Notes: generated by a model not told the origin, from the letters alone. A stretch of DNA of 64,000 nt from Candidatus Bathyarchaeota archaeon (GCA_963775465.1 CAVZIW010000003.1:288001-352000); one strand, 5' to 3'. Numbered from the stretch's first letter, positions 22,635-30,234 are shown. Numbers and translations are program-made.

Positions 22635-22871
22635 ATGGAAGTAGCCATCGACAAGCAAGGACGCATAGTCATACCAAAAGAAATCAGAGATAAGTATGGC
22701 CTTTCAGACGATGATAAATTGGAATTAGTGGCCCGAGAAGATCTTATAGAACTCATTCCGTTGACAGATAAAGATGACCTAGCAATTCATTCTCTAAGAG
22801 AACCCTGCAAAACAGGCAATCCAGAAGCGAGAAAGAAGACTTTCTCAAGGGAGAAAGCTTGGAAACGATGA
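22635..22871 (+). CDS. AbrB/MazE/SpoVT-family antitoxin
   Basis: IDKQGRIVIPKEIRDKYGL. Confidence 0.88.
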   Translation: MEVAIDKQGRIVIPKEIRDKYGLSDDDKLELVAREDLIELIPLTDKDDLAIHSLREPCKTGNPEARKKTFSREKAWKR

Positions 22872-23170
22872 GATTAATAGATGTAGACATACTCTCTTAC
22901 GCTCTCTTTGAGAAACATGACGCTCACATATACTGTTGGTCGCTGCTGCAGAATGCAGTTAATGGAAAAACACGCGTAGCAATCTCCATTACTAGTCTAC
23001 TTGAACCTATCACGCATTAGTAGACGACTATCAGATAGAAAGAGAAGAAGCAACATACAAGCTAGTCTACTGATTGCTAATTGATTGCCTCGTTTACGAT
23101 AAATCCATATTCGAACTCCAGCAACATAACGCTTAAGCTCAAACCAATGGGATTGAAAGTACCCTAGAAT
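22868..23170 (+). pseudogene. Disrupted PIN-domain (VapC) toxin
   Basis: ATGA overlap with the antitoxin; MRLIDVDILSYALFEKH...SLLE then frameshift and apparent internal deletion; end approximate. Confidence 0.7.
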
Positions 23171-23428
23171 TTGCAAAGGTTTAGTCTTCGATACTTTGGC
23201 ATTACACTAATCCTGCGTTTTTAGTCAGAAGAAGAAAATAAGCTCTTTCTTTTTTCTTTGTTAGTTATAGGTTTCTAAAGCGTTCAACTGTATTGCGATG
23301 GAAACTTAAAACTATGAAAAGTTATCTATACACCCAAAATGCCACTCTGGACCTCTTGAGCATAATTATCAAAGGCGCCCCAACTTTTCAAATGTTTTTA
23401 TGTGAAGCCTGCTTTATCTAGAGCGTAG

Positions 23429-23719
23429 GTGTTTTATATGGTTGAAGATTTTGAACAAGACGATTTCGACATTCTTGACCAAAAAGCCAAACAGGTTCTC
23501 AAAGTCCTATCTCAATTTGATAAAGGTCTGCTAGTGAAAGTGGACCTCTTACATAGAAAGACAGGTTTAATGCCTGAAGGTCTCAACGACGCAGTGAGAC
23601 ACCTGTCAAAATCCAAGCTCATCGACGTACTTGAAACGCCAAAAAGAATAGCGCCCTACGAGTTCTACGTCGTCGAAATAACCGATTTTGGACGAGAAGT
23701 GCTCGCAAAATTCGGATAA
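23429..23719 (+). CDS. Small winged-helix protein
   Basis: LNDAVRHLSKSKLI...VEITDFGREVL wHTH-like pattern. Confidence 0.6.
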   Translation: MFYMVEDFEQDDFDILDQKAKQVLKVLSQFDKGLLVKVDLLHRKTGLMPEGLNDAVRHLSKSKLIDVLETPKRIAPYEFYVVEITDFGREVLAKFG

Positions 23720-23937
23720 AGCCACTCAGCTTCAATTAAGCTGCTCTCAATTTTTTTAAAGTTGAAGATGTGATTTTAGTTAGCAATTTTTAGACCTGCT
23801 CAAGAGGCACCTTAAATTTTGTCAATTAACTCCATTATCTTGGCATAAGTCTCCACGTTACTCGCTATCCTGACGAAATCATGTCCTTAACAGCGATCTT
23901 GCAAGTTGTTGATGAGATTCTGCTATACTTGTGATCA

Positions 23938-24195
23938 TCTGGGTAAACTACCAAGAAGGGGTCAGGCTCCATCTTCACATACGCAAACACGGCTAGCGCT
24001 ATACTCCAAAAGACGTCGGCTGGCTTCCGTTGGGGTGAGAGTAGCATCTGGCGTCATCTTTACATATCTCATAATGTTCGGACGTTTAATTCGCTGCAGA
24101 TATCCCCTCGATATGGGCGCCCCCAGTTGAGCAGTGGATAGAAGACTTGGTTGTTTAGAGGTCTCTGTTTAAGCAAACCAGTCATTTCATTTTGG
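23938..24195 (-). pseudogene. Degenerate copy (D) of the terminase large subunit 3' end
   Basis: Reads NEMTGLLKQR..FYPLLNWGRPYRGDICSELNV / ...YSHPNG / ADVFWSIALAVFAYVKMEPDPFLVVYP with frameshifts. Confidence 0.88.
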
Positions 24196-24225
24196 TGCAA
24201 CAGGATAAATTGCTTCTAAGCCCCT

Positions 24226-27372: not shown

Positions 27373-27651
27373 CTAAAGTTTGACGCTTGTTTGTAGTAAT
27401 TCCTGAAGCTTTGGATTGTCGGGAAAAATCCAAACTATTCTTCTGCCGTCAAAGATTATTTTGTTAGAGCTTTCAAGGTACTTTAGTATGCGGTTGAAAG
27501 TTTGGTATTGAATTTTTTTTGGGAGGATTTCCCATAATTGCTTTCTGGTAGGGTATGAACCGGACTTCTTAATAGCATTCTCAACCATAAGGATAGTATC
27601 AAGACGTGGTTCATGAAGGGTTTGTGTCATTATTTTCTTACCTCTCAACAT
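27373..27651 (-). CDS. Small winged-helix protein (putative antitoxin or regulator)
   Basis: LHEPRLDTILMVE...LWEILPKKIQYQTF..IL.YLESSNKI; probable start 27630. Confidence 0.7.
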   Translation of the reverse strand: MLRGKKIMTQTLHEPRLDTILMVENAIKKSGSYPTRKQLWEILPKKIQYQTFNRILKYLESSNKIIFDGRRIVWIFPDNPKLQELLQTSVKL

Positions 27652-27844
27652 ACCATATTATACAAACTTATATAACTTTTGTACCCAGTGCTTTCTAACA
27701 AATTGGATTGCACCTTCCTTTGCAGTGTATTCTTGGGATCTCTACGTCGCATACGCGTCAACTTAGAAAGCCGAACTCTCAAAGTTTGGATGAAGGGGAC
27801 AAAAATAGCATAAGAGCCACAATAATTGTTATTAGGTGAGACGT

Positions 27845-28234
27845 AAGATCTCAAGCATCTGACCGATAGTTGCAATCTCTGCGTTCAAACTTTCTGAGTG
27901 TCAATAGGTGTTTGTCTCCGCTTACAATATAGTCTGCCTTGCCATTGAAGGTATGAGGAAAACTAAATTATCGTCAGGTCTTCCAATATGACCTTCAGGT
28001 TGCCGCTAACAGATGTCACTGTGATCTTCCTTAGTAGAAGTGAAATAAACAAATCGATTTGAGCGTTAGTTATTATAAATTTATTCCTTGATAGGATATA
28101 AGCAAGCTCAGCCACCATTTGGCTAGACAATATTACCGTATGTTTGTCTAGCAATCTTTGAACGAGCTCTAAGGGGTTTCCTTTTTTAATTAGCGCTGGG
28201 GCACTAAGACGTTAGTGTCAATAAGTAGAGTCAT
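27845..28234 (-). pseudogene. Frameshifted PIN-family toxin (PIN_3 type)
   Basis: MTLLIDTNVLV / ...ILSSQMVAEL...ILED / PDDN...ADYIVSGDKHLL across frames. Confidence 0.8.
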
Positions 28235-28235
28235 T

Positions 28236-28376
28236 CTATTCGCCTTTTCGGCCTCGCTTCTCAAGCCTGTAGCTCTGAATTTCTTTTAGGAGCTCCTTTT
28301 CAGAAATTTTCCCTTTTTGTTGTTTCCTGACTTCACTAGCCAGCTTTTCTAATTCTTCCCCAAAAGAAGGAAAACT
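28236..28376 (-). pseudogene. 5'-truncated antitoxin C-terminus
   Basis: FPSFGEELEKLASEVRKQQKGKISEKELLKEIQSYRLEKR...* directly upstream of the PIN gene; no start codon, abuts the terL stop. Confidence 0.55.
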
Positions 28377-29849
28377 CTAGTTTCGCGGGATAACTGCTGA
28401 GAATGGTTCTGGCTCCATCTGCACGGATGCGAACACGGCTAATGCTATGCTCCAGAAGACGTCGTCATGTGTGCCTCCAGGGTGCGAATAGCCTATGGTG
28501 CCGTCTTTGCGTAGCTCATAGCGTTCGACATTTAGTTCGCTACAGATGTCTCCTCTGCAGGGTTTTTCCCAGTTTAGTTAGGGATAGTAGAATTTGCCGC
28601 TGGTCATGCGTTGCTTTAGAAGGCTTGCCATCTCGCTTTTTCGGGGCACACTAAAATTGACGCCCTCCGCGTTCTCAATGCCCGCCGCTTCCATTTCAGC
28701 AATAAAACTTGGACCTTCACGGGTAAAATCCACCCGAATACGTTCAAAGCCTCCCCAGCGATCCTGTAGAGCCTTAATGTAGCCTAAAACGTTGGCATAC
28801 ATCGTGGGCTGTTTGAAAATTTCGAGGTGACGCAGATACAGAGTATCATTTCTCCTCTCTATCACCGAGAAAACAGTGTAGTCTTTGGTTTGAGCGAGGT
28901 CTAACCCGGCAAAAAACTCGCCTTCCTGCGTAACTTCAGGATCAAGTAGATCAAGCTCTTCCATGCAATTTTTTACTGTGCCAATGCAGGAAGCAATCAA
29001 ACTCTGCGTTAACCAAACGTTGTCATCCTCAACCCATTCCGCCTCCATCTCACGTCTCCAACGAGAAAGATCATCGCCCATCTGAATCTTTATCTCCTGG
29101 AAAGTATTGAACAATAGAGGTCCGTTAGGACTTAGGGCTTTTTCGATAGTGACATGAGAGGTTTTAAATTTGCTAAAGTTCTTGTGGGTAAAAATCTTAT
29201 AAAAGATGCTGTCGGTGTCCCAAGGCGTACTGCTACACACGAACTTGCCATCAGTCGTTCCAAGCGTATAGAGAATGGCATCGTAGAGATCCTGATCATT
29301 AGCCACGAAATTAAACTCATCCGCGTAAACCACATCAAAGGTTGGACCTCTGATGGTTTCAGGATTGTTTGGGAAAGCCTCAATGCTGCTTCCGTTAACA
29401 AAATCGATTTTCGTTTTCTGTGGCTTGAAAACAATTCCTGCTGGAAGCTTATGAGCGAATGCTGCTATGCGCGATATGATTCTTTTTGTTTGACGCCAAG
29501 AGGGACCCACAATTCCGATCGAAGCTTTTGGATGTGTAACCGCATATTTTAGAAGTAACGCCGATATCGTTGCGGTTTTGCCGCTTTGTCTGCACCACCG
29601 GGCAGCGGTGAACTGGTTATTCTCAAAGATTTCAGCGAACTCTTTTTGGTATGCATAGGGCTTGAAACCTAAAACCTGCTCAAGGAAATCAACGGTATTA
29701 ACGCTTAATTGCTGCGTCTTTTCAATGGCTGTTTGCCTTAACCGAAGGTGTTCCTGCTCAATCTCATGAGATTTAGCTAGAAACTGATTGGGCCGCAGGG
29801 TTCGAGCTTCTTTCTTTGAGCTCTTTGAGCGTCTGTTGTAATTGCGCAT
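28377..29849 (-). pseudogene. terL: Terminase large subunit-like ATPase-nuclease with an in-frame TAA at 28578-28580
   Basis: Walker A RQSGKT, Walker B VVYADE, motif III SSTP, nuclease GLDLAQTKDYT and RVD; the final HDD lies in-frame after the premature stop. Confidence 0.88.
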
Positions 29850-30234
29850 TTTCTTTTTCCATCTCCTCTAGTTTTCGTTCGACATCGCGATAATGGACAT
29901 AGTCGGCTAAAAGTTCCTTATACGTCTTAGAAATGTTTGCTACAGTCTGCAAACGTTGAACCTCCAGCCTATTCAGCCCAGGTTCAACAGACGCCTTTAG
30001 GGCACCTGCTAACATTTTCAAGGCTTCTTCAACACTAAGCAGTTCCTTTGGAATGGGTATAGAGGTGTTTACGTAGCCTTCAGTTTGAAGCCGCAAACCC
30101 AAACGTTGAGATTTTGTAATTACCGCTTTAGGCGTTTTCTTAAGTTTAGACGCTATTTCGTCAATGTTTAAGTTAGCGTTGACAAGTTCGTTTAATTCAG
30201 CTTCTTCTTGAGCCGTCCATACTTTGCCCGTCAA
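29773..30234 (-). CDS. HTH plus coiled-coil protein overlapping the terL start; candidate terminase small subunit
   Basis: WTAQEEAEL...IDEIASKLKKT..AV..K..RLGL HTH, helical C-terminus, positioned directly upstream of terL. Confidence 0.65.
   Translation of the reverse strand: MTGKVWTAQEEAELNELVNANLNIDEIASKLKKTPKAVITKSQRLGLRLQTEGYVNTSIPIPKELLSVEEALKMLAGALKASVEPGLNRLEVQRLQTVANISKTYKELLADYVHYRDVERKLEEMEKENAQLQQTLKELKERSSNPAAQSVSS

Follow-up and report, generated by a model that had tools for sequence, protein, structure and literature searches.

A stand-alone terS–terL gene pair in a Bathyarchaeia genome and the copies of its terL 3' end that separate toxin–antitoxin and defence-type genes

Introduction

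Genes for terminases count as hallmarks of the tailed viruses. What, then, is a pair of terminase-like genes doing beside genes of the archaeal mevalonate route, and why does the 3' end of one of them recur behind it, between blocks of other genes? The question is raised by G000, a Bathyarchaeia metagenome-assembled genome (MAG; 2,417,524 bases, 92% complete), in which a putative terS and a terL gene stand at one end of the locus 22635–30234. Its placement in the Bathyarchaeia/Bathyarchaeota follows the names borne by close homologues. Unless preceded by a contig name, coordinates are positions in the window, i.e. the whole 64-kb stretch of G000 contig C3 that was analysed. We consider it probable that the pair is a stand-alone module of proviral origin which is kept by selection, and that the terL 3' end serves as the homology anchor of a displacement array. 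This reading is built on the array itself, its polymorphism between genomes, a displaced stub at another locus, the recurrence of such arrays, the insertion of the module among host genes, its exclusive clade and the purifying selection acting on it.

Copies of the terL 3' end

The two genes, the four copies of the terL 3' end and the cargo blocks between them are arranged as follows.

29773–30234, minus strand: putative terS, 153 aa; GcrA/Myb-like helix-turn-helix (HTH) at the N-terminus, then a long helix; 77-nt overlap with the start of terL
28377–29849, minus strand: terL gene of 490 codons, interrupted in frame by a TAA at 28578–28580; the annotated open reading frame (ORF), 28578–29849, has 423 aa
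28383–28798, minus strand: terL's own 3' end (copy 1), nhmmer E 4e-118
26912–28376, mixed strands: cargo block 1, taken as the newest; absent from the related genome G022
26544–26911, minus strand: terL 3' remnant (copy 2), nhmmer match 26550–26911, E 7e-85; stop codon reached
25805–26503, plus strand: cargo block 2, with vapB at 25805–26086 (VAPB_antitox, E 9e-14) and vapC/PIN at 26028–26465 (PIN, E 2e-17)
25668–25798, minus strand: terL 3' remnant (copy 3), nhmmer E 4.4e-10; ~130 nt, profile positions 239–370 of 420; decayed
24226–25533, minus strand: cargo block 3, an AAA_14/DUF4143 ATPase gene, 435 aa (AAA_14, E 1e-35; DUF4143, E 6e-20)
23938–24195, minus strand: terL 3' remnant (copy 4), nhmmer match 23939–24193, E 9.4e-48; frameshifted; stop codon reached
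22635–23719, plus strand: cargo block 4, taken as the oldest

The copies were delimited with an nhmmer profile of the final 420 nt of terL, for which 22 intact genes from other loci were used, the window and G022 being excluded. Run on the whole of G000, the profile gave only four significant matches, all on the minus strand of C3 (the next best had E 0.07), so that the genome holds one terL and three stubs. An earlier note, made from the sequence of the window alone, had described the terL 3' end as recurring three more times on one strand, and these matches confirm it far beyond chance. The note had also let each copy end near the terL stop; copies 2 and 4 do so, and copy 3 ends short of it, the last ~50 nt and the stop codon being missing. 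The 5' ~113 nt of copy 2 are roughly 70% like terL and are followed by a core of ~250 nt identical to copy 1; its end has the final codons and the downstream flank of G022. The same relationships appear as a direct repeat of 300 nt with 95% identity (26545–26844 versus 28378–28677) and as shorter repeat families, some of them with three copies, that link positions 23941, 25692, 25741, 26554 and 28387; copy 3 belongs to families D3 and D4.

Repeats of this kind, or the difference between G000 and G022, might be artefacts of short-read assembly or binning, a danger to which the earlier note had pointed; we regard this as very improbable. Public sequencing runs were consulted as assembled contigs from four runs of four studies, in which rare forms are invisible. 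The junctions between block 2 and copy 2, between copy 2 and block 1 and between block 1 and copy 1 are covered by contigs of all four runs, and the array is therefore not an artefact of this MAG. Copies 3 and 4 occur in G022 too, and analogous arrays are present in other assemblies, including those of relatives of single-contig genomes. On the other side, the Logan contigs break at repeat borders, and the near-identical copies 1 and 2 share a nonsense codon, an identical TAA at 28578–28580 and at 26745–26747; a sense codon is read at 28579 in contigs of three of the four covering runs (X1, X2 and X5) and at 26746 in one run (X8). The terL genes of relatives (483–496 aa) are uninterrupted, and that of G022, which is 99% identical, has TTA at the TAA codon. 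Since G022 and most run contigs read sense, the interruption either is peculiar to the strain or arose during assembly, inside the repeat. The annotated ORF ends at 28578, with this in-frame TAA; the gene runs on to 28377.

Comparison of related loci

G022 aligns at ~97% on both sides and lacks 1,833 bp bounded by repeats of ~350 nt. The comparison of cargo between strains, which the earlier note had proposed, thus turns up a block that is present in G000 and absent from G022. In a three-way alignment, copy 1 follows G022 until the last two codons and then passes into block 1 (AAC TAG), while copy 2 ends as G022 does (AGC TAA), with the flank of G022; the terL tail of G022 matches both window copies. 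The difference between the two genomes is one crossover in the core, through which either a circle carrying tail and cargo was inserted in G000 or a deletion occurred in G022.

A displaced tail is found at an orthologous locus of two other genomes (G010:C10 versus G023:C1). Here G023 has an additional 4.07 kb, consisting of a gene for 116 aa, a gene for a 923-aa PQQ/Big-domain protein and a new terL tail. The stub in G023 (r1, 186 nt long) is 91–94% identical to the terL tail of G010 and only 72% identical to its own neighbouring terL, and the identity between the full terL genes of G010 and G023 falls from 0.91 to ~0.7 from ~500 nt before the stop. A homologous crossover in terL, combined with an illegitimate joint downstream, would give both this breakpoint and the short stub.

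Full terL genes with same-strand remnants were found at five further loci (L030, L040, L052, L053 and L054), all with AbrB/PIN pairs as cargo, to which L054 adds a gene for a PQQ/Big-domain protein. Seen by genome, apart from G010:C10 and G023:C1, a full terL followed by stubs, with AbrB/PIN pairs as cargo, is present in G010:C4, G008:C18 and G113:C10, and isolated stubs lie in four more loci. The suggestion of the earlier note that recombination is repeatedly anchored in the terL 3' end, behind which toxin–antitoxin (TA) and defence cargo gathers, is upheld by the G000/G022 polymorphism, the displaced tail of G023 and the five further loci.

Under the reading that we prefer, incoming DNA carrying a related terL 3' end together with downstream genes would recombine inside the resident terL. 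The gene would stay whole with the incoming tail, the incoming cargo would land directly behind its stop codon, and the resident tail would be pushed downstream as a 5'-truncated stub. Repeated rounds would leave cargo blocks between decaying terL stubs, the newest adjoining terL, and blocks could be lost again through recombination between stubs. We infer that the host's own recombination machinery, and no integrase, does this, either by a homologous crossover with an illegitimate joint or by one crossover that takes in a circle.

The discrete 1,833-bp difference, the direct repeats, and an element-type tail on the terL side facing a host-type tail on the far side would also suit small integrative elements that enter at a fixed attB in the terL 3' end. 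The cassettes would then behave like genomic islands at tRNA genes, with a copied terL tail for their attP, and their recombinase would be encoded elsewhere, for instance by an int70-like gene or by a helper virus. Integrase homologues of the int70-like type are indeed present in G000, outside the locus, on contigs C1, C2 and C5, and a T-arm-like fragment lies beside copy 2. We nevertheless hold such elements to be improbable, and it is equally improbable that the tails act as their attP. No block contains an integrase, and no recombinase was found in any cargo block of the arrays examined; a Pfam scan of 10 ORFs between 22.6 and 30.2 kb gave no integrase, recombinase, replication or regulatory element module. 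The starts of the remnants are scattered across loci, from residue ~318 to ~455; the junction of block 1 cuts its antitoxin gene in the middle; and the identical core is ~250 nt long. A fixed crossover site does not give a breakpoint ~500 nt before the stop next to a 186-nt stub, as seen in G023. The missing integrase, the scattered starts and the shifting breakpoints favour displacement by host recombination over a site-specific integrase, and the explanation in the earlier note, by which integrating elements duplicate the 3' end of their target, does not fit these variable remnant lengths, cut cargo genes and differing terL breakpoints.

Cargo genes

The individual genes of blocks 1 and 4, and a short stretch at the end of block 2, are listed here.

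Block 1, joined directly to the terL stop: AbrB/MazE-type antitoxin gene, 5'-truncated
27963–28154, minus strand: PIN gene of block 1, decayed
27373–27651, minus strand: HTH gene of block 1
27033–27371, plus strand: RelE-like gene of block 1, 112 aa, convergent; labelled by appearance
26481–26503: T-arm-like tRNA stretch of 23 nt in block 2, beside copy 2
23429–23719, plus strand: ORF of block 4, 96 aa, no family
22859–23020, plus strand: vapC of block 4, truncated by a deletion of ~283 nt relative to G022, where a 151-aa PIN protein is intact; abrB is kept
22635–22871, plus strand: abrB/MazE antitoxin gene of block 4 (MazE_antitoxin, E 4e-9)

Intact homologues of the block 1 antitoxin and PIN proteins are encoded in G106 (a 95-aa MazE_antitoxin and a 148-aa PIN_3 protein), and the pair formed by the HTH gene and a gene for 111 aa recurs in G087 and others; the RelE-like protein had no match in Pfam or PADLOC. 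Of 119 other genomes of the genus, 31 contain parts of block 1. Seven of the loci concerned were inspected and have no terL within 1.5 kb, and the idea that block 1 is a dedicated mobile cassette was rejected on that ground. The block 3 ATPase corresponds to the PADLOC defence candidate PDC-S01 (E 1.6e-64). What the earlier note called a tRNA fragment in block 2 is at most the 23-nt T-arm-like match: ARAGORN found no tRNA in the window, and an Rfam search of 21.5–31 kb (E up to 1) returned only a chance miRNA-like match.

The terS and terL proteins

The terL product matches Terminase_6N in Pfam (E 3.5e-18) and phrog_2 among the PHROGs (E 1.2e-36, residues 47–477); among solved structures it matches the ATPase of T4 gp17 (E 4e-14) and, with residues 312–472, the phage terminase nuclease domain 5m1f (E 0.007). 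PF17289 is recorded in some close homologues. Across 24 sequences, the Walker A/B and coupling motifs of the ATPase (RQxGK, DE and STP) are invariant or nearly so, and the nuclease motifs GLD, RvD and HDD are conserved with their catalytic Asp residues. To judge from its sequence, the product would thus have both the N-terminal packaging ATPase and the C-terminal RNase H-like nuclease of a TerL. In translation, the frame runs on for 66 codons past the TAA, HDD included, to the TAG at 28377–28379; the TAA of the MAG would cost the protein its HDD-containing part. Some close terL homologues (P0024 and P0025) are 635–645 aa long and contain the intein domains PF14890 and PF07591.

The upstream gene is less easily named. 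Its product gave a weak GcrA match in Pfam, HTH/regulator matches among the PHROGs and the GcrA DNA-binding domain in a PDB profile search, and the AlphaFold model (mean pLDDT 76) has an HTH at residues 8–45 and helices at 68–82 and 89–143. No TerS family in Pfam or PHROGs and no solved TerS structure in Foldseek (HTH only) was matched, so that the name terS is positional: of 80 viral contigs, 70 have a homologue immediately upstream of their terL. The modelled protein, with a predicted DNA-binding HTH and a helical part, and the place of its gene directly upstream of terL agree with the layout of a TerS. Neither gene had a match in PADLOC.

Absence of viral partner genes in G000

Related complete proviruses in G014, G052 and G005 carry homologous terS–terL pairs in the gene order tail tube, neck (tail completion), baseplate, two small genes, terS, terL, ABC-type ATPase and, later, integrase. 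The structural proteins of these proviruses gave no tblastn match in G000, and neither HK97 capsid (PF05065) nor portal (PF04860) proteins were matched in this genome, the positive controls being detected. The earlier note had seen no portal, capsid or tail gene in the window; the observation extends to the whole assembly, in which, at 92% completeness, structural genes are to be taken as not found and not as proven absent. The pair is an orphan in G000.

Insertion site in the mevalonate cluster

The pair adjoins two host genes of the archaeal mevalonate route and a short repeat.

30433–30595: C-rich dispersed repeat of ~160 nt in the spacer between terS and the UbiD-like gene, with the motifs CCCATCCC and GATGGGAYGGG
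30655–31968, plus strand: UbiD-like decarboxylase gene
32252–33451, plus strand: AcnX-type gene

The UbiD and AcnX names follow the resemblance of the cluster and the earlier note, and that of the mevalonate kinase is supported by Pfam. A survey of 30 UbiD loci of the genus, each with 1.5-kb flanks, showed that in 8 the UbiD-like gene is immediately preceded by the mevalonate kinase gene in the same orientation, with gaps ranging from 13–22 nt to ~310 nt. Another 8 of the 30 have terS/terL sequence at the site between the two genes, both terminase genes running on in six, and in 14 neither the kinase gene nor terS/terL lies within the flank. A UbiD promoter motif is common to filled and empty sites. 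In G034 the terL stop comes 96 nt after the mevalonate kinase gene, terS lies beyond, and terL has no further viral neighbour; in G014 the kinase gene and terL are separated by one PQQ-repeat gene. The pair is thus an insertion between mevalonate kinase and UbiD-like genes that are contiguous in other species of the genus. In G000 itself the kinase gene (C3:285821–286939) is 31.7 kb away from the UbiD-like gene. The interval, which includes positions 1–19400 of the window, has accessory genes of ordinary kinds, whose products are a P-type ATPase, a methyltransferase, a TrmB-type regulator, a beta-helix protein and membrane proteins, and may be one large island or the product of a rearrangement.

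The C-rich repeat is present in eight copies in G000 (among them C3:43403–43564, C3:390225–390494, C12:9913–10077, C1:146533–146694, C1:377060–377219 and C8:111889–112048) and in the same spacer of seven other genomes, inverted in G099. Rfam has no family that matches it, and the fold predicted for it is modest; it could be an element resembling a miniature inverted-repeat transposable element, or a regulatory or non-coding RNA family. The CCCATCCC element was considered as a packaging (pac) or TerS-binding array and rejected as such, being a dispersed repeat that is absent from other stand-alone modules.

Spread, phylogeny and selection

Homologues of terL were found in 44 of 61 sampled relatives, often several per genome. 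The search of relatives with the terL C-terminus, which the earlier note had recommended, gave 353 matches to the last 114 aa in 100 of 120 genomes of the genus; a proviral tail-tube protein was found in 34 of the 120. The surroundings of terL were inspected at 29 loci, about 9–10 kb per side. Proviral structural genes are present in six contexts, and in the remainder terL has host-type genes on its flanks (HMG-CoA reductase, ABC transporters, beta-CASP RNase, FKBP, nitroreductase, PQQ/Big-domain surface proteins and histidine kinases). Genes of defence type, such as those for TIR, CHAT and PIN, often lie directly behind a stand-alone terL, and seven other stand-alone modules have neighbours of housekeeping or defence type. 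The DNA that paralogous modules have in common begins ~100 nt upstream of terS and ends at the terL stop; their comparison revealed no flanking terminal repeats, and no target-site duplications were found.

Some individual loci may be mentioned here. A TIR-domain gene stands behind terL in G015 (L036/L037). In G027:C4 (L034, 7287–12087), a stand-alone terS–terL follows right after the HMG-CoA reductase gene, which likewise belongs to the mevalonate pathway, and has a gene for a CHAT-domain protease downstream. Large secreted PQQ-repeat/Big-domain proteins of 567–923 aa are encoded just downstream of stand-alone terL at five loci (L024, L039, L046, L053 and L054); in G023, one gene of this kind came in with the new terL tail.

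In a maximum-likelihood tree of 24 terL sequences, the 16 stand-alone genes form one clade with an approximate likelihood-ratio support (SH-aLRT) of 100; six of them are at the mevalonate site and ten elsewhere. The clade is separate from six proviral terL, among which two further lone copies are placed that look like ordinary decay. ORFs shorter than 440 aa (L032, L043, L046, L050 and L051) were excluded from the trees. The stand-alone clade remained exclusive, with a support of 99 (FastTree), after addition of 71 terL from IMG/VR, 9 of the 80 loci having been excluded because no ORF passed the length and motif filter. None of the IMG/VR sequences exceeds 67% identity to the query, and structural markers lie beside terL in 77 of the 80 contigs.

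Pairwise ratios of nonsynonymous to synonymous substitution rates (dN/dS) between syntenic copies, at dS ~1–2.4, were 0.05–0.11 for terL and 0.12–0.20 for terS. The neighbouring UbiD/AcnX genes gave values of 0.04–0.10, similar to those of terL. For distant paralogues, dS was saturated and not computable in five of nine pairs. These ratios point clearly to purifying selection on terS and terL.

Could the locus nevertheless be the residue of tandem, related proviruses that were mostly deleted, with nothing selected or targeted? The family is proviral in origin, homologous terS–terL genes sit in the complete proviruses mentioned above, and some modules are broken. At L039 (G012:C14, 9018–9149), moreover, a vestige of 44 aa of a proviral ABC-type ATPase lies directly behind a stand-alone terL; it is a fossil of the proviral order terL–ABC ATPase and a trace of origin. 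Against decay, the stand-alone genes fall into one exclusive clade and do not branch off here and there from viral lineages; both genes are intact and subject to purifying selection across species in which synonymous sites are saturated; the same insertion site is used in several species, in G034 with no other viral gene beside terL; and the cargo between the stubs consists of TA and host-type genes, not viral ones, in a genome without structural remnants. We think that ordinary decay has only a slight chance of being the explanation. The earlier note had counted a terL carried by relatives inside complete proviruses as a sign of decay: related pairs do occur there, in G014, G052 and G005, while the clade itself stands apart from proviral and viral terL. 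Taken together, the insertion site, the exclusive clade and the purifying selection argue that the pair is not fresh proviral debris. The domesticated terminase that the earlier note had proposed gains in substance from an orphan pair at the same site in several species, with purifying selection and a clade of its own.

Discussion

Where would the incoming DNA of a displacement array come from? By analogy with known packaging systems, it may, tentatively, be supplied by TerS and TerL themselves, which would package DNA from the module onwards in the downstream direction, using the capsids of head-tail viruses that reside in or infect the same cell; equally tentatively, the genes behind terL would then travel preferentially. 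A more specific form of the idea, which we hold to be rather unlikely, is that the modules are chromosomal packaging starters with no virus of their own that, whenever a head-tail virus of the related family replicates in the cell, load chromosomal DNA from the module to beyond terL into its capsids. If true, this would explain the stubs, the TA and defence cargo, the spread in multiple copies and why both subunits are under purifying selection, and the stretch behind terL would be a hypermobile dock, where arriving terL-headed fragments insert behind any resident terL. It would amount to a prophage-free form of lateral transduction in archaea, a process whose details were reportedly given by Chen et al. 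in 2018.

Two observations at the locus make such a supply by packaging attractive. Cargo is always on the downstream side of the terS-to-terL direction. Between G000 and G022, a tract of low divergence at 24527–30640 (block 1 left out) has 38 differences in 4,544 nt, compared with 162 in 3,089 nt of the flanks (Fisher P = 2e-32). It spans the upstream spacer of terS, terL, vapBC and most of the block 3 ATPase gene, which indicates a recent exchange of exactly that stretch between the two genomes; G000 and G022 are mosaic elsewhere too. Interference with the packaging of viral DNA, i.e. an antiviral role, is an alternative that is inseparable here from packaging supply.

Several points weigh against the preferred reading of a selected module with a terL-anchored displacement array. 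terL is interrupted in the G000 MAG, and the presence of the same TAA in copies 1 and 2 requires gene conversion or a repeat-collapse error, since a single crossover does not predict it. The change between G000 and G022 cannot be polarised as insertion or deletion, the shorter form of G022 could be a collapsed assembly, and neither an excised circle nor a joint lacking block 1 was found in the contigs of the four runs, where rare forms do not appear. The cargo is not of a dedicated cassette type, given that parts of block 1 are found away from terL. At the mevalonate site, the module is decaying in G065 (L084, G065:C83), where terS residues 1–54 are fused to terL residues 292–490, and G100 (L086, G100:C3) keeps only the last ~60 codons of terL. 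The link to packaging rests on analogy because G000 has no capsid genes and the assignment of terS is positional. Finally, the evidence comes from MAGs and sampled flanks, and the label of a solo locus is based on flanks of ~9–10 kb and the markers of one virus family.

A literature search, with supplementary files outside it, found no paper on orphan, solo, solitary, stand-alone or terminase-only loci, and as far as such searches reach the stand-alone lineage is undescribed; two papers that bring together Bathyarchaeota, terminases and proviruses speak of ordinary proviruses only. A lineage of its own, present in most genomes of the genus and intact under selection, calls for a function: it might mobilize host DNA, interfere with the packaging of viruses or play some other part. 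The genus is widespread in sediment and wetland, and its terS–terL modules are often multi-copy. The arrays would be one way in which TA and defence genes can collect at a fixed place in the chromosome with no integrase involved. In practice, virus-prediction tools keyed on terL will miscall stand-alone loci as proviruses.

Comparison with known systems

Integrative islands accreted in tandem at tRNA genes, such as tycheposons, and the cassette arrays of integrons have ordered cargo, repeats of the target 3' end and the newest cargo next to the intact target; dedicated recombinases assemble them at defined att sites. The terL arrays are alike in ordered cargo and repeats; neither a dedicated recombinase nor repeats of constant extent at a fixed site are seen at them.

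Gene transfer agents (GTAs), which have been discussed for Thaumarchaeota (in the sections of PMC6563490 that concern us), are likewise made from virus-derived packaging genes kept by the host. They keep head and tail genes, whereas no co-inherited cluster of such genes was found in G000; the lack of capsid genes excludes a classical GTA for this genome. Lateral transduction in bacteria, according to the parts of PMC8575950 and PMC12829572 that deal with it, starts at a chromosomal packaging site, proceeds one way, renders downstream genes highly mobile and mobilizes adjacent defence genes, and defence genes cluster beside packaging start sites (PMC12829572, same parts). Satellites of the phage-inducible chromosomal island (PICI) type resemble the module in that some carry a terS of their own (same parts of both sources). 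Both phenomena, as described there, involve complete prophages, or satellites with integrase, replication and regulation, in bacteria; here terS and terL stand alone, with no integrase, replication or regulatory module of a PICI-like satellite.

The closest archaeal case, and the only earlier terS–terL pair lacking further viral genes that the literature search turned up for an archaeon, is NitKor-E1 of Ca. Nitrosopumilus koreensis AR1, whose only virus-like genes, in the account of Krupovic et al. (2019, PMC6563490) as far as it treats this element, are terS and terL, accompanied by VapBC; those authors call its function enigmatic and the element likely a relic, and remark that no terminases were known outside viruses. 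It is like our module in being a chromosomal terS–terL pair with VapBC in an archaeon, a likeness drawn from the description in that account and not from sequence. NitKor-E1 stands by itself in that description and encodes a tyrosine integrase as well as a restriction endonuclease. The module described here, in contrast, belongs to a multi-copy clade present in most genomes of the genus, has no integrase, is under purifying selection and has arrays of terL tail ends.

In layout, the locus comes nearest to the C-terminal displacement arrays of Rhs, contact-dependent inhibition (CDI) and type VI secretion system (T6SS) effector–immunity loci, as presented in the relevant passages of Kirchberger et al. 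(2017, PMC5361080), who cite Jackson 2009 and Poole 2011. For these arrays, the same passages put forward homologous or homology-facilitated illegitimate recombination in the conserved part of the gene, with no integrase. Shared with them, on that description, are a full gene, same-strand 5'-truncated 3' fragments with small genes, and the newest addition adjoining the full gene, with older ones moved back; the displaced resident tail and the newest block next to the gene are both found here. Tails with toxin and immunity functions are not: unlike the variable toxin tails and cognate immunity genes that these passages report for Rhs, CDI and T6SS loci, the terminase tails are the conserved nuclease end of the protein, and the cargo consists of self-contained TA pairs, a defence-candidate ATPase and surface-protein genes, in an archaeal host. 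The terL tail array extends displacement arrays to a different anchor gene and to Archaea.

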